DNA of 64,000 nucleotides, taken from Candidatus Moraniibacteriota bacterium (GTDB lineage Bacteria; Patescibacteriota; Minisyncoccia; Moranbacterales; UBA1568). Positions within the stretch are counted from its first letter, which is position 1. Every line of letters begins with the position of its first letter. The notes under the pieces were generated by a model. It did no database searches. It worked only from the letters and a program-made list of their open reading frames with translations, and was not told the origin of the DNA. The position numbers and the translations under genes were made by a program. Below are positions 9,363-39,306 of the stretch, piece by piece. The DNA lies in the NCBI GenBank assembly GCA_016699425.1, contig CP064975.1, forward strand, positions 859,957 through 923,956, in the 5' to 3' direction.

Positions 9363-9368
9363 AGGCAG

Positions 9369-22519: not shown

Positions 22520-23104
22520 ATGGAAGAAAACATGAACATGAACGAGGAAGAGCATGTCACTGATCAGGCCAAGGCCTGGCTCCAGGAAAATTTGCGCGTA
22601 ATCGTCAGTTTCCTCATCGTCGCAGCGATCGCGCTCGGCATCTACTCCTACTCACAGCGATCGAACGAGACGGTCAGTACTTCAGATGATACGACAACCG
22701 CGAGCGACACTGGGACATTGAGTGGAGACAAAGCGACCGATGTGAAATCAGCCAATGGCCAGTCAAAGGTCACGACCACTCCGACCGAGCTGAGTCGAGA
22801 AACCGAGACTTCGTTTGTTGAGACCGCCACCAAAGGCGATGGGACGACCCATCTGGCCCGCCGTGCTCTCATGAATTATCTCGAGAAGACGCCCGATTCA
22901 TCGCTCTCTGGTGAACACAAAGTCTACATCGAAGACTATCTCAGGAAGCAGCTTACGCAGCGCGGACCCCTCGCTATCGGCCAGTCAGCAGAATTCTCCA
23001 AAGACATGATCCGTCAGGCAATTGACCAGTCGAAGCAACTCAATGGCAAACAGCTCCAGAACTTGAAGAAGTATTCGAGCCGTGTCGCCGCCTACCGATC
23101 GTAA
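22520..23104 (+). CDS. membrane-anchored hypothetical protein (Thr/Ser-rich linker)
   Basis: ATG at 22520 with aggaagagaggtga RBS; one TM (VIVSFLIVAAIALGIYSY). Confidence 0.6.
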   Translation: MEENMNMNEEEHVTDQAKAWLQENLRVIVSFLIVAAIALGIYSYSQRSNETVSTSDDTTTASDTGTLSGDKATDVKSANGQSKVTTTPTELSRETETSFVETATKGDGTTHLARRALMNYLEKTPDSSLSGEHKVYIEDYLRKQLTQRGPLAIGQSAEFSKDMIRQAIDQSKQLNGKQLQNLKKYSSRVAAYRS

Positions 23105-23149
23105 CTCAGTCAGTCGAAGCAGCCATACGTACCTTTTCTGCAAATGCAC

Positions 23150-23183
23150 CAAAAACCCCGGAACTCCGGGGTTTTTGGCTTTT
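23150..23183. terminator. bidirectional Rho-independent terminator
   Basis: aaaaaccccggaactccggggtttttggcttttt between convergent genes. Confidence 0.7.
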
Positions 23184-23189
23184 TACAAG

Positions 23190-23672
23190 CTAGAACGAGC
23201 GCCAGTACCAGATCTGATCACCAGTCTCTAGGTCAGCGGCTTCCCCAGCGTTCAGTTCGAGCACCTGATCGACGGGGGTCGGTGGCATGACAATCTTCGG
23301 ATCGCCCGGCTGAATCCCCCGTTCGATGAAAATAATCTCGCCTTGCGAAAGAAACACCATATCGAGCGGGAATCGCATCCCGTGCATCCAAAATCCATAC
23401 CGTCCTGGCTGGCCGTAGAGGAACAGCATTCCCTTCTCCCTCGGCAAGCTATCGCGCTCACCGAGCCCAAGAGAGCGGAGCGCATCAGTATTGGCGATCT
23501 CGAGCTGCCACATCTGGCCCGAGGCAACGATCGCATGCGTCGGGAAGACGGGACCGGCCGGATCGAACGTGTCTGAGAGCCGCAGTTGGATTGCGACTGA
23601 TACCAGCAGAGCAGCGAGTACAGCGATGAAAAATACTTTTCGCATTGAGGTAATCATGTGAAGTGTCTTCAA
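23190..23672 (-). CDS. DUF192 family protein (secreted/anchored)
   Basis: N-terminal signal/TM; LGLGER...GMLFLYGQPGRYGFWMHGMRFPLDMVFL resembles DUF192 core. Confidence 0.6.
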   Translation of the reverse strand: MKTLHMITSMRKVFFIAVLAALLVSVAIQLRLSDTFDPAGPVFPTHAIVASGQMWQLEIANTDALRSLGLGERDSLPREKGMLFLYGQPGRYGFWMHGMRFPLDMVFLSQGEIIFIERGIQPGDPKIVMPPTPVDQVLELNAGEAADLETGDQIWYWRSF

Positions 23673-24706
23673 AGCGGGTGATGAGCCTCGGGCCGGGGGT
23701 ACAACGAAACACGGAGTGATAATGAGAGGAGTAGGACGAATGCACCCGCAATGAGGAACACCAGAGCCTTACGGTTGCCTTCGATCGACAGGGCGAGGGT
23801 CGCCATCAACCCCGTCACCACCAGATAGACCGACGCAATTGTCACCGGCCGCCAACCACGTTCGAGAAAAAGGTGATGAAGGTGTCCCCGATCGGGGAGA
23901 AAAGGCGATCGACCGAGCATGAGTCGACGAAAGACAACGAATAGTGCATCAAAGACTGGTACCGCGAGCACTATTAGCAGCGTGGCGACCTTCATACCAG
24001 CATACAATCCAAGAACCGCAAGCACGAAGCCAAAGAAGTAGGCGCCACCAGTCCCCGAGAGTATACGCGCCGGGTACCAATTGAACAAGAGGAGTCCAAG
24101 AGCGAGACCTGCAAGGATTGCAGCGAGGATCGCGACAGTAGGCTGATTCACCTCTGGTCGGAGCGCCAAGAGGAAGAGTGTTCCGAAAGAGAGGAGCGCG
24201 ATACCGGGCATCAATCCATCAGTTCCATCTGCCCAATTGATTGCGTTCACAATGAGGAGTACCCACGCCGCGACGCCGAACGCCGCCAGGGCTGGTGCAG
24301 GGTTACTCAGCCACTGGCCCAGATACACACCGACATCCAGCCGCATCCCAGCCGAGTACACCAAGAGACTGAGGAGGATCTGGAACGCGAGATGCCACGG
24401 CCAGACAATATGACCGAGGTCATCGGCTATCGAGAACATGAGGATAGCAAGCGATCCAACCCAGAGCGTCGCAAAAGGAGCATTCCACTCCAATCGGTTA
24501 TCGCCAAGAAGCAGCAAGAGAAAGATACTCATCAGGACCGCTCCTCCCAGCCGGTAGAATCGTGGGATAGTAACTTCTCGTCCTGATTCCCGCCGCTCAT
24601 AGCGCTCGCGAAAGTACGGGATTCGCATGCTAGACCAGAGAAATACGATCGAGAGTCCAAGCGCCCAGACCCACGAGACGAGGTAGAAGAGCGCTCCATG
24701 TTCCAT
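23669..24706 (-). CDS. glycosyltransferase family 4 polyprenyl-phosphate sugar-1-phosphate transferase (MraY/WecA family)
   Basis: NAINWADGTDGL motif, ADDLGH, HHLF; 10-11 TM. Confidence 0.8.
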   Translation of the reverse strand: MEHGALFYLVSWVWALGLSIVFLWSSMRIPYFRERYERRESGREVTIPRFYRLGGAVLMSIFLLLLLGDNRLEWNAPFATLWVGSLAILMFSIADDLGHIVWPWHLAFQILLSLLVYSAGMRLDVGVYLGQWLSNPAPALAAFGVAAWVLLIVNAINWADGTDGLMPGIALLSFGTLFLLALRPEVNQPTVAILAAILAGLALGLLLFNWYPARILSGTGGAYFFGFVLAVLGLYAGMKVATLLIVLAVPVFDALFVVFRRLMLGRSPFLPDRGHLHHLFLERGWRPVTIASVYLVVTGLMATLALSIEGNRKALVFLIAGAFVLLLSLSLRVSLYPRPEAHHPL

Positions 24707-24718
24707 ACCCGTCCAACG

Positions 24719-25087
24719 TTAGGAGTTGATGGAGATAAGTGCTGCTATTGCCGTAACTTCTGACAGGACGACAAGAAACGCTCCGTACTCGAGGACAAGA
24801 GCCACCAGAAATGCTTGTCGCCGGGCGAGTACCTCCGCGAGAGCAAGGTTTCCACCAAAGAAGCCAAGACACATCCCCGGAACGAGATAGACTTGCCACC
24901 AAGCCCCAAGGATATCCACCCCAAAAAACGCATTGTAGCGAAGAATAAGTGTATCAGTCGAGGGACGGATGAAATAGGCCACCGCCACAAAAATCACGCA
25001 TTGAATCACAAGTCCGCTCCACAAAATCGGCCTCCGGCTCTGACGAAAGAGTTCACTCGCCTGTGATGAAGCCGTCTCGGTCGTCAT
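24719..25087 (-). CDS. small polytopic membrane protein
   Basis: 122 aa, 3-4 TM helices, translationally coupled to neighbours. Confidence 0.45.
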   Translation of the reverse strand: MTTETASSQASELFRQSRRPILWSGLVIQCVIFVAVAYFIRPSTDTLILRYNAFFGVDILGAWWQVYLVPGMCLGFFGGNLALAEVLARRQAFLVALVLEYGAFLVVLSEVTAIAALISINS

Positions 25088-26181
25088 ACGTCTCTCGGTA
25101 ATTCCGCCGGGGCGGCCGCTACGCGTTCCTCGTCAGGTGCCGCGAGACGCGTCCGTTCCATCTGGTCACCCAGCCGCATCAGACGCTTTTCCGCATCCTC
25201 ATACTTCTTATTGGCATTACCTATATGCTTGCCAACGAGCTCGAATTCCTCACTGAATTTCCCAAAATCTTGGCCGAGCCGCTCCAATTGGACGAACATT
25301 TCCTTTGCCCGCTTCTCGATCTGCATCCCCTGGAGCCCGAACATGATGGTCTTCAGATAGGCATAGAACGAATTGGGTGAAACAGGGATCACTCGCCGCT
25401 TGTTGAAATACTCATACAGCCCCTGATGGTCATCGTCTTTGATGATGATCTCGTAATACACATTCTCGGCCGGGATATACATGAGCGCCCAATCCAGTGT
25501 CCCCTCGCTCGGAAGAATGTATTTGGCGGCGATGGCGTCAACATGCTTCTTCACATCGGCGATGAATTGCCTGCGCGCGGCCGCCCGATCATTTTCGCCC
25601 TCGATGGAGATCACTCGTTTGAAGTTCTCGAGTGGGAACTTCGAATCCACGCTGATACTCCCGCCCCGGAGGGTGATGAGGGCATCGACGGTCTCGCCGG
25701 TCTTGAACATGTGCTGGAGCGTGTAGCAGTCGGCTGGAAGCATCTGAGAGAGGATATCGCCGAGCATCGCTTCACCGAAACCACCGCGAATCTTGGGCGC
25801 TTTCAGGATATCCTGCAGCGAGGCCACATCTTTGGTCACCTCAAGGATCTGCTCATTCGTCTTGCCCATTTCTGCGAGCCGCTCACGGACATCGAGAAAC
25901 TGCCGGCCCGCATCATTGAGCCGCTTGTCGAGGCGCTCGGTGTTGTCGTTCAGACGCTTGTCCAAGGTCGTCTGCATATTGTGAAACTGCTGAGAGAGCG
26001 TGGCGGAAAATTGGTGCATGTCCTGACGCATCCCCTGGCCGAGATCAGTCACCTGATGCTCGAGTGCTGAGCGCTTCTCATCCAAGGCACGAAAGCGGTT
26101 CTGAAAAGCAATCACAGCCCACACCACCGCCCCTCCAGCGAGGAGTGCGATGCCAATAGCGATAATCGAGGATACCTCCAT
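25084..26181 (-). CDS. rmuC: DNA recombination protein RmuC family
   Basis: N-terminal TM plus coiled coil, C-terminal RmuC nuclease-like domain. Confidence 0.75.
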   Translation of the reverse strand: MEVSSIIAIGIALLAGGAVVWAVIAFQNRFRALDEKRSALEHQVTDLGQGMRQDMHQFSATLSQQFHNMQTTLDKRLNDNTERLDKRLNDAGRQFLDVRERLAEMGKTNEQILEVTKDVASLQDILKAPKIRGGFGEAMLGDILSQMLPADCYTLQHMFKTGETVDALITLRGGSISVDSKFPLENFKRVISIEGENDRAAARRQFIADVKKHVDAIAAKYILPSEGTLDWALMYIPAENVYYEIIIKDDDHQGLYEYFNKRRVIPVSPNSFYAYLKTIMFGLQGMQIEKRAKEMFVQLERLGQDFGKFSEEFELVGKHIGNANKKYEDAEKRLMRLGDQMERTRLAAPDEERVAAAPAELPRDV

Positions 26182-26183
26182 GG

Positions 26184-26789
26184 CTATTTGCGGATACCCG
26201 CGACGAAACGCTTGAGCTCCGCCACTTTGTTTACAACCTCCTCATAAGGCCCCTCGAGGAACTCGATGAAGAACCGATCGAGCATATTCAGCCGGTAGTG
26301 CAGCTCTTCACTGTTCATGAGAACGAAGCGAATTTCTTTGCCGGCTTCTGCCTCGAGGAATGCAATGGCCTGACGGAGTTTGGTCCGGTTGATATTGTTT
26401 ACGACGAGGATCATGTCCACCTTGGATTTCGGATAGTTCAAAAAGAGGCCGCTGATGAGAATGAGCTTCACCTCGCCCACCGTCTTTAGTTTTCGAAAGA
26501 CCTGCGACTGCGCATTCACGTTCAGCTTCGAGACGAGTGTCTTCATCTCCAGATAGAACGGAAAGTCGGTATTGCTCACGTACGATTTCTTCCCCTGACG
26601 CGATTTTTCCGTGACGAACTTCATCTTGGCGAGCCGCTTCACTTCACGCAGCACATCATTTCTTGAAAGCAAGGTCTTTTCGGTGATGTCAGCAATCGAA
26701 AACTCGACTTCAGGATTCATGGTGAAGAAACGGATGAGACGAGCTCTCGGGCGAGATCCAAAGAGCGCTTCAAAGAGCGCGACAGACAT
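26184..26789 (-). CDS. hypothetical protein with N-terminal winged-helix-like segment
   Basis: ORF adjacent/coupled to rmuC; weak wHTH resemblance. Confidence 0.45.
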   Translation of the reverse strand: MSVALFEALFGSRPRARLIRFFTMNPEVEFSIADITEKTLLSRNDVLREVKRLAKMKFVTEKSRQGKKSYVSNTDFPFYLEMKTLVSKLNVNAQSQVFRKLKTVGEVKLILISGLFLNYPKSKVDMILVVNNINRTKLRQAIAFLEAEAGKEIRFVLMNSEELHYRLNMLDRFFIEFLEGPYEEVVNKVAELKRFVAGIRK

Positions 26790-26939
26790 AAGAGAATACG
26801 GCCTTTACACGAGTTATCTGCGATAGCCCCAGTATACGAACGCAGCGCGAAAAAGTCAAAGCTAGTTTTTCTTCCTTTGAGGCTTGGTTGAGGGACAAAA
26901 AGCCGCTTTCTATTCTCATGTTGTGCTATACTCTAGAGT

Positions 26940-29420
26940 ATGCGCTCACGCACCGACAGCCGGAGCAGCAAAGCCACTCCGGTCACGCTCGAGAAACACT
27001 TTAAAGAAATCGTCGTAGGAAGCGGCCGTTCCCAAGAACCGTATATCATCGCCTTCCACTACGCGAGCGACAATGTCTCGGGGTCTCCACTCGGGACGCT
27101 TTTTGGTTTCTTCGAAGTCGATATCCATGACCAAGACGCAGCCTATATCGTGAATTTCCTTGCTTCGGTCGCCAAGAAAGAATACTTTGCGAATTCACAT
27201 CGGAGCCCGGTCGAGAGTTTCGAAGTCGCGCTCCACAAGATCAATGTCGCGCTCGCTGAGATCGTCAAACATGGCAATGTCTCGTGGCTCGGTCACCTGC
27301 ACGGTGCCATCGGAACAATCAGCCAGAATACGCTCCATTTTTCCGTCACGGGTGACGGGCAACTGTATCTCGCCCGAGAAGAAGCACTCCGATTGATGAG
27401 CGATGGATTGGCTGATACCGACACTGAACCACATCCCCTGAAGACTTTCACCGAGGTCTCGAGCGGAGAACTATTCGATGCCGATATTGTCTTCGCATTC
27501 TCCCCCTCCGTCTGGTCGCTCTTCTCTCCCGACGATCTCCGCCGCAGCCTCAACCGACTCGGGCCAGCTGGTTTCGAGCAATTCCTCCGGACCGCACTCA
27601 TAAACGAGCTTCCCATCGCGGCTGTCACCCTGGTCACCTGTTCAGCACCCACCATACTGCAGTCCGAAGAGGCACCGAAAGAATCTCAAAAGCCGGCCGT
27701 CAGCCTCAGCAATGTCTGGAGTGGGAAACCGTTTGACGAAGCGCTCCAGAAAAGGAAGTCTCCGGATACTCCCAAGCAGAAACCCGATATCATCGAGACG
27801 CCGCGAGAAGAATACACCGACCAGAAAACTGGTCACATCTATCTCCAAGCTTCAGCCGAAGAAACTTTTGAGGAAAATGAGAGTCCTTGGAAAGAGCGCT
27901 GGGAGCTCTTTTCACACACGTTTGGAGCCAAGACACGCAACTGGGGTATCGCCCTCCGGAAAATCACGCGCCGCATCAGTAAAGTTGGCTCCCTCACCTT
28001 GGCCTCACTGGGCCAGCAAACAGGCCGCCTGAGCCGCTCACTCAATCGCCGCACTCGGAGCCTGAAGCGGGCCCTGGAAGAAAATCGACAAAGAAAGCGC
28101 CAAGAAAAAGAACAGATCGCGCGCCTCAAGGCGGTCGAGGAAGCTACTCGACCGAACATCGAACCGGAACCAGTGCCCGAAGAGGAAGTCGTCGTCCGAC
28201 CGGTCGCCTCCCTCATTGTGCCTTCACCTTCGAGCGAACCCGTGCCCCCTAAGGAAACTACTCCTCAATCATCTGAGCGCGTGCGCCGCTTTTTCACCCG
28301 TGAGCCGCGCCAGGAAATGACTTTCGGCAATGAAGCGAGGCAGCGGCTCACCCGATGGAGCGCGCGAATCGTGGCCTCCAAGTCTGTCTTGCTCCCGGCA
28401 CTCGGGAATATCAGGGCTGTCTCGAAAAACCTGGCGCTCCGAATCAACCAAGCCCTCCAGTCCTTGATCCATTACGGCCGGACACAGTGGGACAATGGCT
28501 CTGTGAAATACCGATGGATCTTCTCTGTCGGTGGAGTGATCGTCCTCGGCATCCTGGCGTACTTGATATGGCCAAGCACGGAAACACCGCCTGTGGAAAC
28601 CGTGACACCTACCCCTTCGCAGGAAGCCCCAGCTGCACCGGTTTTCCCACCCGCCGAGGAGCCACTCGCTACTCTGCTCGCTGGCAGTCGTCTCATCTTC
28701 CCGACCAACAACTCGCGTTCCATCGCTCTCGTCAACATCAACGACACCCCATTCCTCATCACCGAGAGAAGCATCGTCAATCTCCAGACGCAAGAATCGA
28801 CGACAGCCCCGGAAACGATCCGTCACGCGACAGCGATGGATGATCTCGATGCAATCTTCACCGTCGGGGAATCCGGGTCGCTCTCTCTCTGGAGTACGGT
28901 TACGAAGAAATTTGAAAAAAATACCCTCCCTCTGCCGGCCGGAGCGCAGGTATCGGCCATCGGTTCTTATCTGACCTATCTCTATGTCCTCGACCGAGAA
29001 GCCGGCATCATCCACCGTTTTCCGCGCGCCGAGGGCGGCTTCGGTCCCGCGACGACCTGGTCCAAAGAATCCGTCGCAACAGGTGAAGAGACATCTTTCG
29101 CGGTGCATGAAAACATCCTGCTCGGCGATGTGTCTGGCCAACCAGCACTCTACAGTCGCGGCAAAAACACCCACGTCGGCTTCACTGGACCGATCGCACC
29201 ACTCGCTCTCGATCAACTCGCCTTCGATACCCGCTCTGGTGATGTCCTCGCACTCGATCGAATAAACAAGCGCATCATCCGCTGGTCGGTCACCGGTACA
29301 CTCCTCGCTCAGTACTTCCATACTTCTTTCAACGAAGTCGAGGCCTTTGCTGTCTCGCCAGATGGAACAGAACTTCTCGTTTCACACCAAGGCGCTACTA
29401 CCGCTTGGCGGACACAATAG
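26940..29420 (+). CDS. large hypothetical bitopic membrane protein (826 aa)
   Basis: Single TM (VIVLGILAYLIW) near residue 520, Pro-rich linker, no known motifs; att-like repeat starts at its stop codon. Confidence 0.6.
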   Translation: MRSRTDSRSSKATPVTLEKHFKEIVVGSGRSQEPYIIAFHYASDNVSGSPLGTLFGFFEVDIHDQDAAYIVNFLASVAKKEYFANSHRSPVESFEVALHKINVALAEIVKHGNVSWLGHLHGAIGTISQNTLHFSVTGDGQLYLAREEALRLMSDGLADTDTEPHPLKTFTEVSSGELFDADIVFAFSPSVWSLFSPDDLRRSLNRLGPAGFEQFLRTALINELPIAAVTLVTCSAPTILQSEEAPKESQKPAVSLSNVWSGKPFDEALQKRKSPDTPKQKPDIIETPREEYTDQKTGHIYLQASAEETFEENESPWKERWELFSHTFGAKTRNWGIALRKITRRISKVGSLTLASLGQQTGRLSRSLNRRTRSLKRALEENRQRKRQEKEQIARLKAVEEATRPNIEPEPVPEEEVVVRPVASLIVPSPSSEPVPPKETTPQSSERVRRFFTREPRQEMTFGNEARQRLTRWSARIVASKSVLLPALGNIRAVSKNLALRINQALQSLIHYGRTQWDNGSVKYRWIFSVGGVIVLGILAYLIWPSTETPPVETVTPTPSQEAPAAPVFPPAEEPLATLLAGSRLIFPTNNSRSIALVNINDTPFLITERSIVNLQTQESTTAPETIRHATAMDDLDAIFTVGESGSLSLWSTVTKKFEKNTLPLPAGAQVSAIGSYLTYLYVLDREAGIIHRFPRAEGGFGPATTWSKESVATGEETSFAVHENILLGDVSGQPALYSRGKNTHVGFTGPIAPLALDQLAFDTRSGDVLALDRINKRIIRWSVTGTLLAQYFHTSFNEVEAFAVSPDGTELLVSHQGATTAWRTQ

Positions 29421-29523
29421 CAGCATGTGGTGTTCTGAAACACTGCAAAGTGTAAATGAATCTAATAGCCTATTCAAGCCATTTTTTAGGATGGCTTTGG
29501 GGTCAAGATAGGTTAGCTGGGGG
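29421..29523. repeat. att-like direct repeat copy A (core + right arm)
   Basis: cagcatgtggtgttctgaaacactgcaaagtgtaaatgaatctaatagcctattcaagccattttttaggatggct shared with copy B. Confidence 0.8.
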
Positions 29524-29533
29524 AAATATGCCC

Positions 29534-30040
29534 TCATACAGCTTTTTCTACTAATAAATAAGTCTCCTCAAGAGAAATGAGGGAGGTATCTATAATAACC
29601 GCGTTCGGTCTTTTACCTTTCATGTCTTCAATCTGATGCCAGAAAGCCTCACATTTTTCGGGAGTGAGTAAGCCTCCTTCTTTCCATCCGCGGGCATGAG
29701 CTCGCTCCATCACAACAGCTTTGGATGCCCATAGGATAATCTCCTTCACTTCTGCTCCTTTTTCCCCTGCTATTTCATAATACGCATCCAGCACCTCAAT
29801 ATCAAACTGCATCTTATCAATAATCACATCGTACCCCATATCCAAACAGGTGCTCACCATACTTTCGGCAAGTTCAAGACTTGCCATCCTGCTTTCATCT
29901 CGTTTCTCTTGATACTCACTAAAAAGTCTCCTCAAACTATCTATGTCCAATAAAAATGAGTGGTGCCGACTCTTATGAAGCCTCTCAGCTATGGAACTTT
30001 TTCCCACACCACACGGCCCATTGATAATAATGATTTTCAT
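29534..30040 (-). CDS. P-loop kinase (AAA_33 / zeta-toxin / phosphotransferase-like)
   Basis: GPCGVGKSS Walker A; 168 aa; AT-rich. Confidence 0.65.
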   Translation of the reverse strand: MKIIIINGPCGVGKSSIAERLHKSRHHSFLLDIDSLRRLFSEYQEKRDESRMASLELAESMVSTCLDMGYDVIIDKMQFDIEVLDAYYEIAGEKGAEVKEIILWASKAVVMERAHARGWKEGGLLTPEKCEAFWHQIEDMKGKRPNAVIIDTSLISLEETYLLVEKAV

Positions 30041-30041
30041 A

Positions 30042-30584
30042 TTAGCTTTTGATCAATTCGACTAAGAGCGGGAATTCCTTGTACGGTTGATTATAGGTCG
30101 TTGATCCCATATGACCGTCGTGACGAACGATGAGTTTGCCTCCAAGGTTGTCAGCCATTATCTTTCCTTGTGTATCATCACAGCCCCACGGATCATTATC
30201 TGAATTGATAAAAATAAATTCCTTGGCATGAGGTCGGATAACATCCCAATGTGGCTCTTCTTCATTCTCGCCTTCTGCACTCTCTCTCAGTAATTTCGCA
30301 TACCCTGAGACAAGGATAGCTTTCTTGATTTTAACATCGATTTTTTCAAGGACACTGAGAATCACCTGAGCTCCAGCCGAATGACCAATCAAAACCGTTT
30401 CTTCGGTAAAGGTACCATTGGAAAGAATAAAGGGTAACCAGTCCATCCGGTTCGGATGCTCGTCGTTTGGTAGTTGTGGGAGCCAGACATCATATCCCAA
30501 TTTTTCCAATTCGTTTTTCAGATAGGGAAACCAAAATTCATCTTTTTTTGTTCCCGTCCCATGAAGAATGATAGCGTTTTTCAT
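30042..30584 (-). CDS. alpha/beta serine hydrolase, RBBP9/YdeN-like
   Basis: ILHGTG ... GHSAGAQ nucleophile elbow ... NSDNDPW. Confidence 0.65.
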   Translation of the reverse strand: MKNAIILHGTGTKKDEFWFPYLKNELEKLGYDVWLPQLPNDEHPNRMDWLPFILSNGTFTEETVLIGHSAGAQVILSVLEKIDVKIKKAILVSGYAKLLRESAEGENEEEPHWDVIRPHAKEFIFINSDNDPWGCDDTQGKIMADNLGGKLIVRHDGHMGSTTYNQPYKEFPLLVELIKS

Positions 30585-30663
30585 AAACTATTGACTGAGG
30601 ATTTGGAACGATGTTGAGCCTATTAATATTGCTATTTCAAACCTACAAATGCGACTCCGGGTC

Positions 30664-31743
30664 TTATAAGCTTTTAGAAATAAGTGCCAAGAGTTCTCCT
30701 CTCCTATCTCGAAGAAAGACGACTTTGTTGAACTCTGAATCAAGTGAAGGGTCAGTTTTGAAATGCTCGAGATAATAATGATCAGAAAGAGGCCAGGTCA
30801 ATGTAAGAAGTTTTTGATACCAGGCTTCTATTGCATACTCTAGTTCCCCTAACTCAAAAGTAAAACCACAGGTGCTCGTATACCCTCTCAAAAAAGCATT
30901 CGCCACATCTCTCTTGTCCTCTAAATGATCAAAGCCCCTTCTGACCACACACATATTAAATGATCGGATAAACTCATTATAGGGGTTTTCCATTCCGCTT
31001 ATATCCCAATCACACACTCCAATAATCACTCCAGCCTCATTAAAAAGAAGGTTAGCGGTATGGTAGTCTCCGTGACAAATCGTCAACTCTTTCTCTTGTT
31101 CAACGAAAGTACGTTTTTGTAGAAGATTGGTTTTCAGTTCAATAAAAGCTAGGGCCTTGTTGTCGTATTCGTCTTTTACTTCCTTCTCGTTGATTTCCTT
31201 CTGCATCTTTTCAAATTTGGACAGACTTTCCTCCTTACTATCTGAAACCCAAGCCGAAATACGTTTGATAGATTCAGGAACTGCAGTAGTACGAGACACG
31301 GCGTGGATTTTACCCAACATCTCTCCTAAGTGATACGTGAATGCTATCCGTTCAGCTTCAGAAGAGTGATACTCTGCATGAGCAATATAGGGAAAGATGG
31401 AGTAAAACTCGCCGTCAACATCCGTATGTAGTTCTCCTTTTTTATTCTTTATTGGAAGAACGACGGGGACATCTGAGTGATCTTTGACAAAGCTTGCCGA
31501 CCTTTCAGAATTTTCGATCTTGAGTAAATCTGCTCTTTTATGCTTCTTAATAAAATATGTATTTCCACTTTTGTCTTCAACAATAAGATTTTTAGTACTG
31601 ATTCCTTTTTCAGGCTCACGCACAAAACTAAGTTGGGTGAAACCATACTCTTTCGCAAGATTATCTAGAATAGGCTGAAACTCGGACATCTTTGAGATAT
31701 TATGATTGAGCTTATTATACCAGACTTCGCCCCGCCATTTCAT
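30664..31743 (-). CDS. APH/ChoK-family phosphotransferase (aminoglycoside/macrolide kinase-like)
   Basis: Brenner motif ICHGDYHTANLLF and GVCDWD. Confidence 0.7.
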   Translation of the reverse strand: MKWRGEVWYNKLNHNISKMSEFQPILDNLAKEYGFTQLSFVREPEKGISTKNLIVEDKSGNTYFIKKHKRADLLKIENSERSASFVKDHSDVPVVLPIKNKKGELHTDVDGEFYSIFPYIAHAEYHSSEAERIAFTYHLGEMLGKIHAVSRTTAVPESIKRISAWVSDSKEESLSKFEKMQKEINEKEVKDEYDNKALAFIELKTNLLQKRTFVEQEKELTICHGDYHTANLLFNEAGVIIGVCDWDISGMENPYNEFIRSFNMCVVRRGFDHLEDKRDVANAFLRGYTSTCGFTFELGELEYAIEAWYQKLLTLTWPLSDHYYLEHFKTDPSLDSEFNKVVFLRDRRGELLALISKSL

Positions 31744-31745
31744 CC

Positions 31746-31893
31746 ATCAAAAAAGAGGCTCTCTCAAGCCTCCAAAAGCGACCACTCTCACAGCATGTGG
31801 TGTTCTGAAACACTACAAAGTGTAAATGAATCTAATAGCCTATTCAAGCCATTTTTTAGGATGGCTATAGGATCAAGTAGGGATAATTCAGGA
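31746..31893. repeat. att-like direct repeat copy B (left arm + core + right arm), contains minus-strand terminator hairpin
   Basis: aaaaaagaggctctctcaagcctcc...cagcatgtggtgttctgaaacactacaaagtgtaaatg... Confidence 0.8.
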
Positions 31894-32051
31894 GAGTAAG
31901 CGTTCATATACCCCTATTATCTCAATTTCTCCCATTGTGAGCAATCCTCGCTTGGCGGGACAGCTTTCAAACATTGCAGTGGGAACAGGCTTTCCCTGAT
32001 CTAGCAATTGCTACTCAACAAATTAATAGACTTTTAGGCCTGGTATAAAAA

Positions 32052-33833
32052 TCAAGAGAAGGTAAACGCATACACCGCTGTCCCTGGCGTTTCGAATTCT
32101 AAGCGAAGCATATGCTCTCCAGACACCCCTTTCCCGTCAAAGAGCTCGTAGAGCCTCTCTGTATCGACTAATACCTTTCCATCAATAACATCTTTACCCG
32201 ACAGTTCCTTCGTAATCGGATTCTGATCCAGAAAAACTTTTACGCTCGCCGACGAAGCATTATCTGGTGGAGCCAGAACCAGAAAAACCTTCTTCCCTTT
32301 GAAACGAAGAGTGAGCATCGTATCACTTCCAGCGATCGCTCTTTCCGATTCGACTTTCCAGATTCCAGTGTAAGCAAAATAATCTTGTTTCAGTGTAGCT
32401 GGCGCAGTAAATATCTGCGCTTCTCCGGTCACTCGTTCGGGTGATAGAAACCGCTCCATACGTGAACTCCCAAGGTATGTTTCCGGGGTCTGGCCTCTCC
32501 CAGGAGTATCCGCCACAATTCCCAGAGTATCGGTACTCGCTTTTCTTCCTGCTTCTTCAAGAAGACTCTGAATAGCCTGTTCCGTTTCTTTATAATTCCC
32601 TTCCCCGAAATGATATTCGCGTATCCTCCCTTCTGTATCAATCAAATAATGCGCCGGCCAATAGCGATTGTTGTAGGCTTGCCATGTGCCATAATTGTTG
32701 TCCTGAGCCACAGGATAATTGATCCCGTACCGTGCCAGGGCATCAACAACGTTCGTTGTCTTTTTCTCAAATGCAAATTCTGGCGTGTGCACCCCAATCA
32801 CCACAAACCCCTGGTCTTTGTACTTCTCATACCAGCCAGTCACATAGGGAAGTGTCCGGATACAATTGATACAGCTATAGGTCCAGAAATCTATAAGTAC
32901 AACTTTGCCACGCAATCCCTCCATGGTCAGTGCTGAGTCAGTATTGAGCCATTTCTCTATGCCCACGAATTCTGGTGCTTGCCCATATTGAGGGAGATTG
33001 CTTTTCATATTTGATTTAGTCTCCTCTTTCTTAAGAAGTGAACTTTCTCTATCAACGCTCTTCAATTCATCAAGTTTCTGTTTCACCGTATCATTTTTCT
33101 CGAGCCCGTTTAAAAAACTCTCATAACTCGGAAATGTATCCAACAGCTTCGTTTGAAGTATCTTGTCATACCCGGTGTAAATTGCTCCAGCCGCCAAAAT
33201 CATAATCAGACCAAATGACTGCTGGATGCGTTTGGTATAGGGTGCCAGTGCCCTGGTCTTGGTCAGTACCTTTTTCCCTAAAACAGCCAGGACAAAGAGT
33301 GGGAGCGATACGCCGAGCACAAACGCCAATGTTACGAGCACCACCTGGAAGCTGACGGCCTGAGTCGCGGCCAGAGTGGCGATCGTCGCCAGAATTGGCC
33401 CAGCACAAGGCGACCACACGAGACCCAAGGCAAAGCCCGTAATGAAACCGCTCCAAAAACCTGTGCCGGAATTTTTCGTAAACCGTCCGCCGATAGAAGC
33501 AAACCGACTCACCACTCCCTCCAGTCGCGCTCCCAAAGCTGGAACGATAAGAGTCAATCCCAAAAGAGCTATCACCAAGACAGCAAACAGGCGCAAAACC
33601 TCAGGATCGAACGGGATGACTTGAACGACAAAAGCAAGGGCGAGCGTTGCCAGCATAAAGCTCACCGCCAAACCTGTTACGATACCAAGGGGCTTCCGCT
33701 CACCACCAGTCGCCCCCGCTGACAACACAATAGGGAGAATCGGCCAAATACACGGCGCAAAAATCGTCACTACCCCAGAAAGAAATGCAAATATGATGAG
33801 AATGGTCATACTGTTTTGAAAAAATATTACCAA
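32052..33833 (-). CDS. DsbD/CcdA-type transmembrane thiol-disulfide transporter fused to TlpA-like thioredoxin domain (ScsB-like)
   Basis: N-terminal polytopic domain with paired Cys (FAPCIWPIL, WSPCAGPIL), thioredoxin CINC motif (WTYSCINCIRTLP), C-terminal extra domain. Confidence 0.7.
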   Translation of the reverse strand: MVIFFQNSMTILIIFAFLSGVVTIFAPCIWPILPIVLSAGATGGERKPLGIVTGLAVSFMLATLALAFVVQVIPFDPEVLRLFAVLVIALLGLTLIVPALGARLEGVVSRFASIGGRFTKNSGTGFWSGFITGFALGLVWSPCAGPILATIATLAATQAVSFQVVLVTLAFVLGVSLPLFVLAVLGKKVLTKTRALAPYTKRIQQSFGLIMILAAGAIYTGYDKILQTKLLDTFPSYESFLNGLEKNDTVKQKLDELKSVDRESSLLKKEETKSNMKSNLPQYGQAPEFVGIEKWLNTDSALTMEGLRGKVVLIDFWTYSCINCIRTLPYVTGWYEKYKDQGFVVIGVHTPEFAFEKKTTNVVDALARYGINYPVAQDNNYGTWQAYNNRYWPAHYLIDTEGRIREYHFGEGNYKETEQAIQSLLEEAGRKASTDTLGIVADTPGRGQTPETYLGSSRMERFLSPERVTGEAQIFTAPATLKQDYFAYTGIWKVESERAIAGSDTMLTLRFKGKKVFLVLAPPDNASSASVKVFLDQNPITKELSGKDVIDGKVLVDTERLYELFDGKGVSGEHMLRLEFETPGTAVYAFTFS

Positions 33834-33893
33834 GGGGAACAGCTCTGCAGAAACTGTCCCGACTTCGTACTACTTTTTACTTTGATAGAATCG

Positions 33894-34460
33894 CTATTTC
33901 ACCTGAGTAAGCAGTTCGCTCAACCCTTCACTCCCAGACCATTTAGCAATCATTTTTCCCATCGCATCCACCTGCACCAATGTATGCTGGTAGGTGACGC
34001 CATACTGCTTCTTGAGGTCAGTGTACTTGTCATAATCCACATCAAGAACCAGTGTGTTCTGTGGGATCTGACTAAGATTGGCTTTGATATTAGCATCTAG
34101 AGCACGGCACGTCGGACACCAGGAAGCGCGGAAAAAAAGCACTACCTTGCCATCTTTGGCAAAAGCAATCTTTGATGCGTCGTATGAGACATACTGCCCC
34201 CCTTTGACCATCATCGCGTTGTCCTGTTTCATCATGGCATCTTCTTTGACCATTGTTTCTGCTTTCTTTTCCATCATGGCCTCAGGTTGCTTCATGACCT
34301 CTTCTTTTTTCTCCATCGCCACTTTTTCAGCCATGGCTTTTTCTTCCATCATGGCTTTGTCTTTCATGGCCTGCTGGTTAGATGTGTACCACCAACCACC
34401 AAGAACAACAACCACTCCAAGCGCAAGGGCTCCCACTATCATTTTATTCATATTTTTCAC
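33894..34460 (-). CDS. membrane-anchored thioredoxin-fold protein with methionine-rich (MxxM-type) segment
   Basis: SWCPTC thioredoxin motif; Met-rich region AMKDKAMMEEKAMAEKVAMEKKEEVMKQPEAMMEKK. Confidence 0.65.
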   Translation of the reverse strand: MKNMNKMIVGALALGVVVVLGGWWYTSNQQAMKDKAMMEEKAMAEKVAMEKKEEVMKQPEAMMEKKAETMVKEDAMMKQDNAMMVKGGQYVSYDASKIAFAKDGKVVLFFRASWCPTCRALDANIKANLSQIPQNTLVLDVDYDKYTDLKKQYGVTYQHTLVQVDAMGKMIAKWSGSEGLSELLTQVK

Positions 34461-34499
34461 CTCCTTTCATATTTATGATTTATCACTCTGTACGATATT

Positions 34500-34871
34500 T
34501 TAATATCGCTTTTCTGCATACAATCGACCTACAATTTTTGCCAAAACCATCCCGGTCAATACAAACGGTAACCATGGATCAATCTTATGTGATAATGCTT
34601 GAACAATAATGCCCATAAGGAGAAGAGCTCCTCCAGCCGTATAAGCAAAACGAGTACCTATGAAACGATGGAGTTGTTCACGTTCATCCACGACGAGCTC
34701 CTTCCAAAGAAACATAGCAAAAAGAGCAAATAGCGTCACAATTAGACCGAGCAGTGTCATATGAAAAGCATCCGTCATCCAAAAGCCAAACGGATTAGCA
34801 AACCAAACGAGGAAAATTACAAGTAATACCGCTACGGCCGTTTCCGAAAAAATTTTCGACATCATACTCAT
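34500..34871 (-). CDS. small polytopic membrane protein
   Basis: 123 aa, 4 TM. Confidence 0.45.
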
Positions 34872-35077
34872 GACTTTTTAATGGTGAATATTTTCTCCAC
34901 TGGAACACAAAAAAACTGAGCGATTTTCATCGCCAGTAAAACAGAGGGGGTATAATTTCCTTTCTCAAGCGCAATAATAGTCTGCCGTGTAACGTTTACG
35001 GCCAGAGCCAACTCTTCTTGCGTCAGCCCCCGTAGTTTCCGCAAGTTTTCTATACTATTTTCAATTATTTCCTGCAT
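34868..35077 (-). CDS. XRE-family HTH transcriptional regulator
   Basis: [27 protein letters not shown]. Confidence 0.75.
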
Positions 35078-35177
35078 ACGATATGTAAAACTGACTTTAC
35101 ATTTCTATTTTAGACTAACAATACAATATGTCAAGCTTACTTTACATTTTAATTCCATAGTTCGAATCCCGTTTTAG

Positions 35178-35248
35178 ACATCAAAAAAGAGGCTCTCTCA
35201 AGCCTCCAAAAGCGACCACTCTCACAGCATGTGGTGTTCTGAAACACG
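35178..35248. repeat. att-like direct repeat copy C (left arm + core)
   Basis: identical to left 70 bp of copy B. Confidence 0.8.
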
Positions 35249-35500
35249 ATCTTCAAGATGAAGACGATGAGCCAGGAACGTGGTTGAAGTCAGTTAAAGA
35301 ACGAGGGCGACCGTATGACCTATCCTCATTGATCCCTCTTTCAATCACTGTGAACAACGCTCGTTGAGCGAAGCCTCCGAGCGTTCGTGTGGGAGCAAAC
35401 TTTCTCGGTCTGACCGTTTTACACCGAAAAATACAATGAGATCCTCGCGCTCATTGAAAAAAATGGGGCATTCCCATCGATGGGAGTGTCGGTCGACCAC

Positions 35501-36004
35501 CTACAGTATCTGCCCAACGATCACGACATAATTGTGACCATATTTCTTGGCACATTTAGGACAGGTAGTATACCACAGGTACCTTTTTTTGATCGAATAG
35601 CCTTTGCTTAGCGTAGTGTTCTCAAAATCTTTCATCCACGTGCCGGTCTCTTTGAAGTTCCCCTCATAGACCTTGCTGAAATATTTCCCACTCATAATTA
35701 CGTTTTCCGCGTCGGATATCTCTTTATCCACCGCCAGATACAAATCCATATTCCATTTTGATGTATGGTCAGATAAACATATATATTCAGGGGTTTGTGC
35801 ACCAGCGTTCTCTACTTTCCCGGTGATTCTCTTCATCACTTGGCCGAAATTAATCGGCATATAAAACACAGTACAAACTTTGTCTTTGATGAATCGCTTA
35901 TTCTCCCAACTAAATTCTTTGTTGTCCCAAGGTGTGGGATCAAATCTGAGGCAACATTCTTCCTTCTGGTTATTCACATATTTGTCGATTAAGATATTAT
36001 TCAT
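35501..36004 (-). CDS. hypothetical protein, AT-rich
   Basis: 167 aa ORF with C-terminal Cys pair (CPKC); no family recognised. Confidence 0.45.
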   Translation of the reverse strand: MNNILIDKYVNNQKEECCLRFDPTPWDNKEFSWENKRFIKDKVCTVFYMPINFGQVMKRITGKVENAGAQTPEYICLSDHTSKWNMDLYLAVDKEISDAENVIMSGKYFSKVYEGNFKETGTWMKDFENTTLSKGYSIKKRYLWYTTCPKCAKKYGHNYVVIVGQIL

Positions 36005-36221
36005 AGCATTCGCTAAATGTGATTAGATTCCTCCCTCCCAACCGAAAAATGAAAGGGATACATTTCACCGCTATTATACACCCAGATTCCGATCGACTCC
36101 TCGGAGTACAAAAATGAGGTTTCCATTAAGCCTCAGGTACCAACCTCTCTCAGGACTTGCAGAGTCCCGGACCGCTTCACTCGGGGAATAACGCCGAGAC
36201 TGCTATACCCGCGCGCCCTGA

Positions 36222-36272
36222 GCCATCTGCATGCGGGACATGATTTCCTAGTTCACGCTCCGGGCATCGCGA
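36222..36272. repeat. degenerate duplicate of the 3' end of the T4CP gene (in-frame TAG)
   Basis: gccatctgcatgcgggacatgatttcctAgttcac...ccgggcatcgcga vs 36833-36883. Confidence 0.8.
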
Positions 36273-36326
36273 TCGTTAACGTTGCTCACGTCATTCCGCC
36301 AACCCACAGTCTCTGAGGCTCTTCGC

Positions 36327-36764
36327 CTACAACTGGTCGATTGCGTTGCGCAATTCTGCCACCAGGGACTGAAGCTCGCCATCGGACATGATCGCTCGGA
36401 CACCATGCGCGTGGTCCAAGTCACCGAGACGGATATCAGGGATGAAGTGATAGTGAAGGTGTTCGACGCTCTTACCACTCCCCATCCCCTCCCGAACCAT
36501 GAGCGTAAAGCTATCATACCCGAGATAACGGAGAAGACGAGCACTCTGGTGAGCGAGGTCCTGGATATCGGCAAGCTCCTCCGGACTGAGTTGGAGGAAC
36601 GATTTTTTGTGCTCATTCGGGACGATCAGTAAGTGATGCTTGTGATACGGGGCCAGCGCGTACGTGACATAGGCGGTTTTGTTTTCGAAGAACCTACGGT
36701 CATCCGATGCACAAAACGGGCAGGTTCCTGGAGGCAATGCGTCGATATAATCAGAATATCTCAT
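36327..36764 (-). CDS. HIT-family hydrolase (second copy in window)
   Basis: HLHYHFIPD histidine triad; CPFC zinc motif at N-terminus. Confidence 0.75.
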   Translation of the reverse strand: MRYSDYIDALPPGTCPFCASDDRRFFENKTAYVTYALAPYHKHHLLIVPNEHKKSFLQLSPEELADIQDLAHQSARLLRYLGYDSFTLMVREGMGSGKSVEHLHYHFIPDIRLGDLDHAHGVRAIMSDGELQSLVAELRNAIDQL

Positions 36765-36813
36765 AGAAACACAGGTTACTCTTTACCTTGATTCATCTCC
36801 GATAGACTCGCTC

Positions 36814-39306
36814 CTATACCTTGGCACCTTCGGCCATCTGCATGCGGGACATGATTTCCTGGTTCACAATCCGGGCATCGCGACCATAGCGCAGGCGCGA
36901 GAGTTCCTTCAAGGCGTTAGCGACTTCTTGGTCACCCGATGTCGGCGGGTAGGTCTTCAAATTGAACGGCTTGGTCAGCTCATTGTTCATGAGAAGCCGA
37001 GCGAAGGCCTGATAGTTATCGACGTTTACCATGTCGTGAGCCGTGAAGACCGGCGCAAACTGTTTCTCGAGAAACTCCGAGTCCTCGGGGCCAACCCGGA
37101 ACGCGACAAGCGAACCGACATTGCCGAAAACTGCCTTGGAGATCTCTTCCTTCAGCTGTCCGATGAATTGATGAGCAAGGATAAGGACGAGCCGATACTT
37201 GCGCGCCTCGGAAAGGATCTGTGCGATGGACGTCGTAGTCACATTCTGGAACTCATCGAGGTAGAGGTAGAAATCGCGTCGCTCGGCCTCGGGCTGATCG
37301 ACCCGCGACAGAGCCGCCATGAGGATCTTGCCGACGACGACCATACCGAGGAGCCGGGCATTGATCTCCCCGATCTTACCTTTGGAGAGGTTGATGAGGA
37401 CGATTTTCCCCTGATCCATAAGCTCGCGGAAGTTCAACGCACTTTCCTGCTGCGCGATGATCGGCCGCATCATGTCGTTACTGATGAAGGTGGTCAGTTT
37501 TGACGTGATGTACGGAACCATATTGGCGAGCGCCGCCTCGCCACCCGCCTTCTCGGCCTCCTTCAGCCAGAAGTCACGGACGATCGGGTTCGTGCAGTGG
37601 GCCAGTTTATAGCGTCGGAATTCCTCATCCGCCAAGACTTTCGGGATCTCCATGAGAGTCGATCCACTCTCGGGGTGCTCCATGATGAGGAGCATGGCGT
37701 TGCGCATATACTGCTCAAACATCGGGCCGCCCGTCGCCTTCATATCGTACAACTGGTCGAAGATGCCGATCATCTCATTGATGACGAAGGTCTTCTGCTC
37801 GGGGTGATTGGGATCGTACTCGAGCATATTTATACCGATCGGCCGGGCGATATCGGCTGGATCAAACACGATGACATCCTCGGCACGCTCCTTCGGGATG
37901 GCCGTCAGGATGTCTTCGATCGCATCCCCGTGCGGATCGATGAAACAGAAACCTTTGCCGGACCGAGCATCCTTCTTCGCCATCTCCTGTAGGTAATTCG
38001 ACTTCCCGACACCGGTCTGACCGATCACATACATGTGGCGGCGGCGATCATTGTCGGTGATGCGGATCTCTGTCTTGGCATTTCGGTAGTCGTTGAAGCC
38101 GAGGAGGAGCCCATCCTTCGGGACATTGATCGGTGGTGGTGCAGCACCCGCTTTCAACCATTTGATCTTCGGCGTCTCGGTGGTCGAGATCGGGAAGTGG
38201 AAGAAGCTGGCGACTTCATCCGAAGTGAGGACCATAGCCGAATCCGGATCGAAATTGCGGAAGATGTAATGATAGGCAGCTTTCTTCGATGAGATCCGCT
38301 TTTTGACGCGGAAGCTGTTCACTTCCGGATTCTCAAACTGAGAGAACGCGTTCTCCAGATGGCTCAGGATAGCTTCGGCACGAACCTTTGTCGCAGCAGA
38401 GGCGAGGAGACGGATATTCACTGAGAATGCCGCCTGGCTTGCTTTCGCGTCGATCGTCTTCACGAGTTCTTGTTCTTCAGGCGTCAATACCACCGGTTTT
38501 TTCTCTTCCTGACTTTGAGTCTTCGCGTCCTGTTGGAGTACCACACGGCCCACGCCCTGCAAGGCCGACTTGCCAACCATCGCTGCAAATGACTCCGGGT
38601 GAGCATCCTCAAGCCGCTTACCTTCCTGCATCTTTTGCGCGATATGCCGACTCCCCTTGCGCCAACCGATGGGGGCCGGAGCGAGCACGATTTGGATGGC
38701 AGCACCTTCCGACACCGTCTCCAGTTTCGACAGCGCATTGGAAATCTCATTCAAGGGGTCAACCAGGAGCGTCTTGTAGGTTTTCAGCGGAAGCGCGAAG
38801 CCAGCTGAGAGTTCAAGGAGCGAGACGGCTGTCTCCCCCGCCGGAGAAAAAATCGTGTAGTCCGGCACCTTCTCAATGGCCGACTGCGGGAAAAAACTGT
38901 GAATCTGCTTCTCGACACTTTCCCGATAGTGCTTCGGAACGGACAGATAAAAGAAGATTTCCTCGCTCGAGGACGGATTGGCGATCTCGAAGACGATATG
39001 TGGTGGCTCGAAGAAAATATGCTTCCACCACGGAAAATGCCGCTTGAGCGACGCGAGCGAGGTGAGGAGCTGATCCATCGCCCGGATTTCCTCCCGCCAC
39101 TCCTCGGCCGTGTGCGCGGTACCCTCGGCGACTTGCTTCTTGCTCACCTGGACAGTCTCGAGATCGAGATTGAGCGATTGCGAAACTTCAAACCGTATCA
39201 GGAGAAAACTCTTCACGACGAGGAAAATCCCCGAAACAAAAGCGAGTAGGCCCGAAAGGTATGCCAACGGAAGGAGCACGACATTCAAATCGAATTCGGA
39301 GAGCAT
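36814..39306 (-). CDS. type IV coupling protein-like ATPase (VirD4/TraG/TraD family)
   Basis: Two N-terminal TM; Walker A VIGQTGVGKSN; Walker B FYLYLDEFQN; LILAHQFIGQL motif typical of T4CP. Confidence 0.7.
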   Translation of the reverse strand: MLSEFDLNVVLLPLAYLSGLLAFVSGIFLVVKSFLLIRFEVSQSLNLDLETVQVSKKQVAEGTAHTAEEWREEIRAMDQLLTSLASLKRHFPWWKHIFFEPPHIVFEIANPSSSEEIFFYLSVPKHYRESVEKQIHSFFPQSAIEKVPDYTIFSPAGETAVSLLELSAGFALPLKTYKTLLVDPLNEISNALSKLETVSEGAAIQIVLAPAPIGWRKGSRHIAQKMQEGKRLEDAHPESFAAMVGKSALQGVGRVVLQQDAKTQSQEEKKPVVLTPEEQELVKTIDAKASQAAFSVNIRLLASAATKVRAEAILSHLENAFSQFENPEVNSFRVKKRISSKKAAYHYIFRNFDPDSAMVLTSDEVASFFHFPISTTETPKIKWLKAGAAPPPINVPKDGLLLGFNDYRNAKTEIRITDNDRRRHMYVIGQTGVGKSNYLQEMAKKDARSGKGFCFIDPHGDAIEDILTAIPKERAEDVIVFDPADIARPIGINMLEYDPNHPEQKTFVINEMIGIFDQLYDMKATGGPMFEQYMRNAMLLIMEHPESGSTLMEIPKVLADEEFRRYKLAHCTNPIVRDFWLKEAEKAGGEAALANMVPYITSKLTTFISNDMMRPIIAQQESALNFRELMDQGKIVLINLSKGKIGEINARLLGMVVVGKILMAALSRVDQPEAERRDFYLYLDEFQNVTTTSIAQILSEARKYRLVLILAHQFIGQLKEEISKAVFGNVGSLVAFRVGPEDSEFLEKQFAPVFTAHDMVNVDNYQAFARLLMNNELTKPFNLKTYPPTSGDQEVANALKELSRLRYGRDARIVNQEIMSRMQMAEGAKV

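Follow-up and report, generated by a model that had tools for sequence, protein, structure and literature searches.

The locus described here lies in a 64,000-nt stretch (hereafter the window) of contig CP064975.1 of a Candidatus Moraniibacteriota bacterium. The window is chromosomal; it begins with a 16S rRNA fragment (1-813) and has five tRNA genes. In it, directly downstream of a gene for an 826-aa protein, two small cassettes stand in tandem, bounded and separated by three copies of a 23-bp core, CAGCATGTGGTGTTCTGAAACAC (Table 1). The core matches exactly at 29421, 31791 and 35225, each time on the + strand, and no additional copy was found in the window even when 3 mismatches were allowed, nor was there any match in 100 dinucleotide-preserving shuffles. 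From core to core, cassette 1 measures 2.37 kb and cassette 2 3.43 kb, and the cargo genes of both are all on the minus strand. As had been predicted, both segments are AT-richer than their surroundings (40.8% and 44.8% GC versus 53.5% and 53.9% in the flanks). The idea that the AT-rich DNA is bounded by the repeats held between the copies, but not beyond them, as a low-GC tract (42.7% GC) runs past copy C to ~36.05 kb.

The three copies share the core and differ in what flanks it. Copy A is composed of the core and a right arm, copy B of a left arm, the core and a right arm, and copy C of a left arm and the core. The alignment of A with B covers ~131 nt (core and right arm, 82% identity), and that of B with C covers 79 nt (left arm and core, 95% identity; 69 nt including the core are 100% identical). 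The A/B homology ends exactly at the left edge of the core, and the B/C homology at its right edge. The exact matches and the alignments agree with the original prediction of three cores with split arms. Its attachment-site (att) interpretation, attL / attP-like / attR after tandem integration, gained support from this arm pattern and from a 99%-identical strain with an empty site, although the insertion site does not overlap the stop codon of the 826-aa gene, as had been proposed: the core starts directly after TAG (29418-29420). A repetitive extragenic palindromic (REP) or miniature inverted-repeat (MITE) nature of the repeat was rejected, as there are no dispersed copies: the three in 64 kb are all at one locus, and elsewhere the copies form clustered arrays bounding differing cargo.

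The empty site was found on a Logan contig of a sister strain (SRR11673999_336855, L008 in our numbering of contigs and loci), which encodes a protein 100% identical to the 826-aa protein and carries a single core, both cassettes being gone. Positions 1-7401 of this contig align with 22038-29443 of the window (99.4% identity), and positions 7379-9573 with 35225-37419 (98.8% identity). The overlap between these alignments is 23 bp long and coincides exactly with the core. The core thus marks both ends of a precise insertion or deletion, namely the 5,804 bp that hold both cassettes and that this strain does not have. The empty site reads …ACAATAG + core + GATCTTCAAG…. If Logan contigs are assembled with k=31, a 23-bp repeat alone cannot collapse the assembly, and the junction must exist in the reads. 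Moreover, cassette 2 genes were present on short contigs from two runs with SRR accession numbers neighbouring SRR11673999, so that related samples may contain both the filled and the empty allele.

Read on the minus strand, the repeat is a gene start followed by a terminator. The right arm and core make up the first 39 codons of a shortened comM/yifB gene, which encodes a Mg-chelatase-like AAA+ protein; the core provides the last eight codons of this open reading frame (ORF; peptide MNAYSPELSLLDPIAILKNGLNRLLDSFTLCSVSEHHML). In copies B and C a TGA stop follows the core directly and is followed by the left-arm terminator, confirming the strong minus-strand hairpin predicted there (intrinsic terminator score at 31773-31754 and 35207-35188). 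At copy A there is no stop after the core, and the ORF extends to 29382. The several small hairpins ascribed to the right arm did not stand up: they are not conserved between copies, and the right arm is coding sequence. A structured RNA was rejected as well, with no Rfam match at gathering or E ≤ 1 save one chance match, and with a fold z-score of only -2.2.

The right-arm ORF is intact in 9/9 copies. The variable columns of these nine right arms are distributed over codon positions 1, 2 and 3 as 10, 13 and 23, and their codon differences comprise 260 synonymous and 272 non-synonymous ones, so we read the codon pattern as a sign of selection on the protein. The same N-terminus is found on short ComM proteins. 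A search for homologues of the peptide gave one 39-aa ORF among 5.8 billion proteins, and a search of 1.84 billion representative proteins only spurious repeat-protein matches; the peptide is element sequence and not comM sequence. A block resembling a promoter and ribosome-binding site (RBS) precedes the 39 codons in copy B and is absent from copy A, where the ATG of the right arm overlaps the stop of the upstream kinase gene (GTATGA). As the right arms differ in this way, and in sequence, cassettes 1 and 2 come from different lineages of one element family.

Outside the window, the exact core was present at 5 loci (five genome-collection contigs) among 185,579 species genomes and on one metagenome contig, and a seventh locus was found through the sole protein match to the right-arm peptide. 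A complete module of ~190 nt, with ~85-90% identity, occurs in 5/7 loci, and the other two (L004 and L006) have the exact core only, with a diverged left arm. Wherever a locus has more than one core copy, the copies form an array, and the cargo of these arrays differs and is mostly without known function. In L005, at least three module-bounded cassettes end in the body of comM, the most upstream boundary core being degenerate (2 mismatches). Measured from core to core, they include a cassette of ~1.6 kb (a zinc-ribbon protein and an unknown protein), one of 0.74 kb (NUDIX) and one of 3.3 kb (an ABC ATPase and an unknown protein). Further cassettes with other cargo, and without a recombinase, were found in L001, L002, L003 and L007. 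Neither a comM 5′ fragment nor a serine-recombinase homologue was found in the window or the array loci, and viral, phage and plasmid collections contained no core, right arm, left arm or unit.

One cassette gene (L003:1606-2409, minus strand) encodes a small (267 aa) FtsK/SpoIIIE-family ATPase; DNA translocases of this type are used by some integrative elements for transfer. Parts of the module were also seen on their own. The promoter/RBS block (GAGATAATAGGGGTATATG) stands alone before unrelated cassette genes (L005:7252-7159, L003:2734-2671), and terminator-only copies stand after ordinary genes, as at L002:1821-1885 behind a pilB-like ATPase, so that expression signals seem to spread as separate modules. 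Taken at face value, the bin labels (Saccharibacteria, Bdellovibrionales) would spread the module across phyla, but caution is needed here. The bins of L005 (CAZCNN010000007.1) and L001 (CAYNNJ010000045.1) are labelled 'uncultured Bdellovibrionales'. Over comM and the DNA downstream of it, however, L005 has 99.4% identity to a contig with a ComM that falls among Moranbacteria proteins, and the closest named relatives of its own comM are all Moranbacteria; these labels are probably wrong.

The connection of the module with comM could be followed to the base. Native ComM of Moranbacteria has 506 aa and an N-terminal ChlI domain, and reads …AAAGGHNVL/FVGPPGSGKT (slashes mark the joint, here and below), and six short ComM forms (319-328 aa) carry right-arm-type N-termini, …CSVSEHHML/FVGPPGSGKT. 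One such protein is encoded at L005:1246-2229, a 327-aa Mg_chelatase/ComM protein that begins with the right-arm peptide and has the joint …SVSEHHML/FVGPPGSGKT. Three other contigs (L017-L019) contain an intact comM with 96% protein identity to it. At the DNA level, L005 and L017 are 99.4% identical from the last three core bases onward and unrelated upstream. The identity starts at CTTTTTGTC, and the native comM site, GGCCACAATGTC/CT/TTTTGTCGGACCGCC, and the attP-like module, AACACCACATG/CT/GTGAGAGTGGTCGC, have only CT in common; attP and the native attB thus agree in two bases and hardly at all in what flanks them. Serine recombinases characteristically cross over within two bases between sites of almost no flanking identity, and the L005/L017 junction fits such a crossover at CT. 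The left arm opens with an invariant TGAGAGTGG(T/C)CG. Most of the core would then be the recombinase half-site on the right-arm side, and TGAGAGTGG(T/C)CG the other half-site, so that both would stay conserved while the outer arms drift. The comM gene would be cut directly before its Walker A motif (residue ~218 of 506) and supplied with a new start, leaving a ComM of 319-328 aa. Judged by these comparisons, the module belongs to a low-GC element family whose usual target appears to be comM in Moraniibacteriota, and the cassettes of the window would be miniature, non-autonomous members of this family, inserted at a secondary site.

Larger putative relatives were seen at comM itself. In L013, a 767-kb Moraniibacteriota contig, a diverged right arm and the body of comM are directly preceded by ~10 kb of DNA with 36% GC; together with L015, this gives two low-GC (36-38%) islands of at least 10 kb upstream of the right arm and comM. 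The L013 island begins with a gene for a 595-aa protein (Resolvase, Recombinase and Zn_ribbon_recom domains), and a small terminase closes it near comM. In L015, a small terminase and a restriction-modification system lie upstream of a closer variant of the module. The small terminase of both belongs to PHROG 51; no phage family beyond the terminase was found among ten proteins scanned from the two elements, and comparing the L013 recombinase and the L015 terminase with viral contigs gave nothing useful. As far as they were seen, the elements look like phage satellites rather than phages.

The window locus has no comM; an older low-GC segment ends there in a core, and this core is the landing site. 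For the 826-aa protein, 311 homologues were found, and those with a named source come from Candidatus Moraniibacteriota/Moranbacteria. In two distant relatives (L009 and L010) its gene is not followed by a core and ends with TAA in place of the TAG of the window. As the similarity ends at the stop codon, the acquired DNA begins no more than a base or two away from it. The older segment, composed of a flank termed X′ and a Bact_hydrolase gene, is present in both the filled and the empty strain and absent from the 63%-identical relative L010. The last ~24 nt of the 826-aa gene, read on the minus strand (flank Y), agree with the comM half-site at 12/24 positions in register, including CCGCC (p about 0.007-0.018), and this resemblance is a hint that the older segment may have entered at a pseudo-site. 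Its far boundary might be the terminator at 36109-36153, which resembles the left arm with a local score of 37 versus 20.3 ± 3.8 in 500 shuffles, although an unrelated terminator at 59.5 kb equals it. X′ found no support as a diverged right arm (its local score was 19 versus 17 ± 2.5 in shuffles), and a comM remnant past copy A was rejected: tblastn is weak beyond residue 39, and the sequence there belongs to the 826-aa gene, whose conserved 3′ end is found also in relatives without the core. Farther downstream, a 73-bp direct repeat (36200-36272 and 36811-36883, 85% identity) duplicates the 3′ end of a gene for an 830-aa VirD4/HerA-like protein beyond a HIT gene (36327-36764). In L010, HIT directly abuts the VirD4/HerA-like gene and there is no duplicate; the repeat may be the scar of another insertion or transfer event.

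The two cassettes carry seven genes in all. Cassette 2 has its own near-consensus promoter, TTGACA-16-TAAAAT, at 35134-35107. Two 34-nt direct repeats (82% identity, 35076-35154) overlap the promoter of its HTH_3 gene and resemble operators for autoregulation of the cassette. Its thioredoxin has N-terminal Met/Lys/Glu-rich repeats (…AMMEEKAMAEKVAMEKK…AMMEKK…AMMKQDNAMMVKG; repeats at 34227-34364), and such a protein beside a DsbD-type reductase suggests a metal- or oxidant-related function. Neither the 7 cassette genes nor ~40 further ORFs of the window were found to encode a recombinase or transposase domain, in line with the predicted lack of an integrase in cis. Exact look-ups of the phosphotransferase (APH), kinase and Bact_hydrolase proteins gave no match, but the look-up of the 826-aa protein initially also missed an identical recorded protein. 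Elsewhere in the window, a 290-aa reverse transcriptase (RVT_1; 56717-57589, minus strand) lies 2 kb away from an AbiEii-like nucleotidyltransferase toxin (59698-60462, minus strand), a pair that may mark a retron, a diversity-generating retroelement or an abortive-infection region.

Table 1. Coordinates of the cassettes, their boundaries and neighbouring features in the window.
Feature	Position	Strand	Remarks
826-aa gene	26940..29420	+	conserved in Moraniibacteriota; TAG stop abuts core copy A
Core copy A	29421..29443	n/a	attR-like: right arm and core meet chromosome; exact match
Right arm, cassette 1	29444..29539	-	with core, 39 intact codons (MRAYFPQLTYLDPKAILKNGLNRLLDSFTLCSVSEHHML)
Cassette 1 cargo	29534..31743	-	GC 40.8%; Pfam; NCBIfam gave only sub-threshold matches
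AAA_33/zeta-toxin-like P-loop kinase (cassette 1)	29534-30040	-	Pfam
Serine hydrolase (cassette 1)	30042-30584	-	Pfam
APH-family phosphotransferase (cassette 1)	30664-31743	-	Pfam
Left arm, copy B	31746..31790	-	TGA directly after core, then intrinsic terminator GGAGGCTTGAGAGAGCCTC + T6
Core copy B	31791..31813	n/a	centre of complete attP-like module; exact match
Right arm, cassette 2	31814..31935	-	block GAAATTGAGATAATAGGGGTATATG (promoter/RBS-like) and 39-codon ORF with core (31788-31907, MNAYSPELSLLDPIAILKNGLNRLLDSFTLCSVSEHHML*)
Cassette 2 cargo	32052..35154	-	GC 44.8%; same genes on Logan contigs L011 and L012
DsbD_TM-redoxin-Thioredoxin_10 fusion (cassette 2)	32052-33833	-	
Met-rich thioredoxin (cassette 2)	33894-34460	-	
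Small membrane protein (cassette 2)	34500-34871	-	
HTH_3 regulator (cassette 2)	34868-35077	-	
Left arm, copy C	35179..35224	-	stop and terminator; identical to left arm of B
Core copy C	35225..35247	n/a	attL-like: chromosome side meets core and left arm; exact match
Older low-GC segment	35248..36004	-	flank X′ (35248-35500) and Bact_hydrolase gene (35501-36004)
Tentative degenerate left-arm-like terminator	36109..36153	-	CTGAGAGAGGTTGG...GAGGCTTAATGGAAACCTCATTTTTG

We interpret the locus as a tandem pair of small non-autonomous integrative cassettes, inserted by recombination within the 23-bp core after the 826-aa gene, and put the probability of this at roughly 70%. What the sequences show directly is that the repeats exist, that a sister strain has a precise empty site, that the right arm is coding and that the module is connected with comM; from the anatomy of the locus we infer site-specific recombination, and likewise circular intermediates and action in trans. 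As the cassettes contain no recombinase, they would need to be mobilized in trans. Each circular cassette would carry the attP-like module, that is, a 39-codon comM start with the core as its last eight codons, TGA and an intrinsic terminator. Such circles (right arm-core-terminator) would recombine with any chromosomal core under catalysis in trans, and recombination of core with core would yield the order chromosome-core-terminator, cassette, gene start-core-terminator, cassette, gene start-core-chromosome. The junction of a double-cassette circle is predicted to read left arm …GACCACTCTCA + core + TGCAAAGTG…GGATGGCTTTGGGGTCAAGATAGG, and the left junction of the comM islands is predicted to consist of a comM 5′ fragment, then CT + GTGAGAGTGG… and the terminator. 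Our leading guess for the enzyme, held at somewhat less than even odds, is a serine recombinase, which is favoured by the CT junction and by the recombinase gene of L013. Ccr-type enzymes are known to produce tandem islands bounded by 15-20-bp repeats, some of whose members have no recombinase genes.

Several points weigh against this interpretation. The recombinase was not found in the window or in any array locus, and neither a single-cassette nor a circular form was found. The L013 recombinase is linked to the site by position only, its left junction not having been seen, and the L013 arm is a distant variant of the module that went undetected at the DNA level (E about 1). To our knowledge, attP and attB are the only pair that serine integrases of the phage type recombine; the landing site has 23 bp in common with the attP half-site and resembles an old attR, so that a promiscuous Ccr-like enzyme or a tyrosine recombinase would be needed. 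The family is also rare, with the exact core at only six genomic loci outside the lineage of the window, and its taxonomic spread is that of bin labels. A wider and rather doubtful version of the cassette interpretation would be a form of cassette capture in bacteria of the candidate phyla radiation (CPR), integron-like but differently built, in which recombinase-less packages with their own promoter and terminator are stockpiled at any 23-bp site, and the serine recombinase of comM-targeting satellites moves them between lineages.

The failure to find a recombinase in cis would also be expected if no dedicated enzyme was involved, and the cassettes spread by natural transformation and homologous recombination between ~190-nt modules, the empty strain arising by slippage between the 23-bp repeats or by a short-homology deletion. 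CPR bacteria are thought to be naturally competent, modules 85-95% identical over ~190 nt are enough for RecA, and the partial copies break at varying points (terminator-only at L002:1809, after the pilB-like gene, and L003:1323; promoter-only at the L005 and L003 positions given above). However, the filled and empty junctions share only 23 bp, which is at the lower limit for RecA, and, under this explanation, losses of one cassette alone, from A to B (~115 nt) or from B to C (69 nt), would be expected far more often than losses from A to C. Moreover, both arms diverge around an unchanging core, as in L004 and L006, whose cores are exact and whose arms are diverged, and the comM junction has only CT in common with the native gene. 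We, therefore, regard this explanation as unlikely. The locus could also be a dead remnant, left by a larger composite element that integrated once and lost its recombinase and most of its genes, the repeats being fossil and the cassettes immobile. The low-GC tract past copy C with its possible degenerate left arm at 36109-36153, the existence of larger relatives, and the ~18% difference between the right arms of A and B, which suggests no recent joint arrival, would fit such a history. It has little probability in our view, given the precise presence/absence polymorphism between strains ~1% apart, the intactness of all three cores, both terminators and all nine right-arm ORFs, and the different cargo of arrays elsewhere.

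Small-cassette arrays without their own integrase recall integrons or integrative mobile elements exploiting Xer (IMEX) at dif sites, moved by a host recombinase, and the right arm and core do contain an 11-6-11 imperfect palindrome (CTTTGTAGTGT-TTCAGA-ACACCACATGC, 7/11 symmetric). Nevertheless, the comM junction at CT lies outside the spacer of this palindrome. The repeat unit has no attC-type R″/R′ boxes (GTTRRRY), there is no IntI, and the cassettes are multi-gene, with their own promoter and terminator. The cumulative GC skew falls steadily across the window without a turn at 29-36 kb, which argues that the site is not at the replication terminus, and the sites lie in different gene contexts in different genomes. 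An integron-like or Xer-dependent origin is, thus, very improbable.

How CPR bacteria, with their tiny genomes, acquire accessory genes is poorly understood. The locus offers a concrete, testable route: the cassettes are 0.7-3.4 kb long, the attachment sequence is exactly defined, and both alleles, filled and empty, are found in runs with neighbouring accessions. It also extends the targeting of comM by mobile DNA to a new phylum, where the gene start is rewritten and a truncated ComM is left, rather than the gene being simply broken. Should the recombinase be found, its sites, being short and well defined, might prove useful as an integration tool.

Among known systems, the staphylococcal cassette chromosome (SCC) and ψSCC elements stand in tandem at one site (rlmH/orfX) between short direct repeats, carry accessory genes and are moved by the large serine recombinases CcrAB/CcrC. 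The cassettes of the window resemble them in their tandem position at one site and in having members without a recombinase, which in SCC are moved by a neighbour's enzyme. They differ in having a target other than rlmH, in being 5-20 times smaller, in carrying a gene start and a terminator in their att module, and in that no ccr-like gene was seen in the window and the host is an uncultured CPR bacterium. The ssrA islands of Dehalococcoides are tandem, low-GC and bounded by a 20-bp direct repeat of the target, with a CcrB-like serine recombinase, and those without an integration module were interpreted as cis-mobilizable and spread by accretion (PMC3146451). Their repeat is the target's own sequence, from the tmRNA 3′ end, whereas the core described here is element sequence that replaces target codons, and the islands here are much smaller. 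The cis-mobilizable elements (CIMEs) related to ICESt1/ICESt3 of Streptococcus are likewise non-autonomous att-flanked segments that a related element mobilises in cis or trans, with an attL-attI-attR tandem, but they depend on a tyrosine integrase acting at the fda 3′ end, and no link to conjugation is evident at the window locus.

Elements of the SXT/R391 type, inserted at the 5′ end of prfC, supply a promoter and N-terminal coding sequence, so that the gene is still expressed, and they form tandem arrays. The replacement gene start carried by the element is a shared trait; in contrast to these 100-kb conjugative elements with a tyrosine integrase, comM is cut mid-gene (residue ~218 of 506) and a whole domain is removed. 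The comM gene is also the preferred target of AbaR/Tn7-like islands, and its interruption may protect mobile DNA from transformation-based removal (PMC11472951). AbaR and other comM-disrupting elements, thus, hit the same host gene, but AbaR inserts by Tn7-type transposition with 5-bp target duplications, provides no replacement N-terminus and resides in Proteobacteria. Integron arrays and clusters of attC sites lacking integrases (CALINs) likewise hold small cassettes in one orientation without their own integrase; unlike in these, there is no attC structure and no IntI, and the cassettes are multi-gene with their own promoter and terminator. No description of a comM-module cassette system was found in the searchable literature. 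Set beside these systems, the present one is new in that its cassettes are very small, its att module joins a gene start to a terminator, and comM is cut mid-gene with a truncated ComM as the outcome; its host group is new as well.

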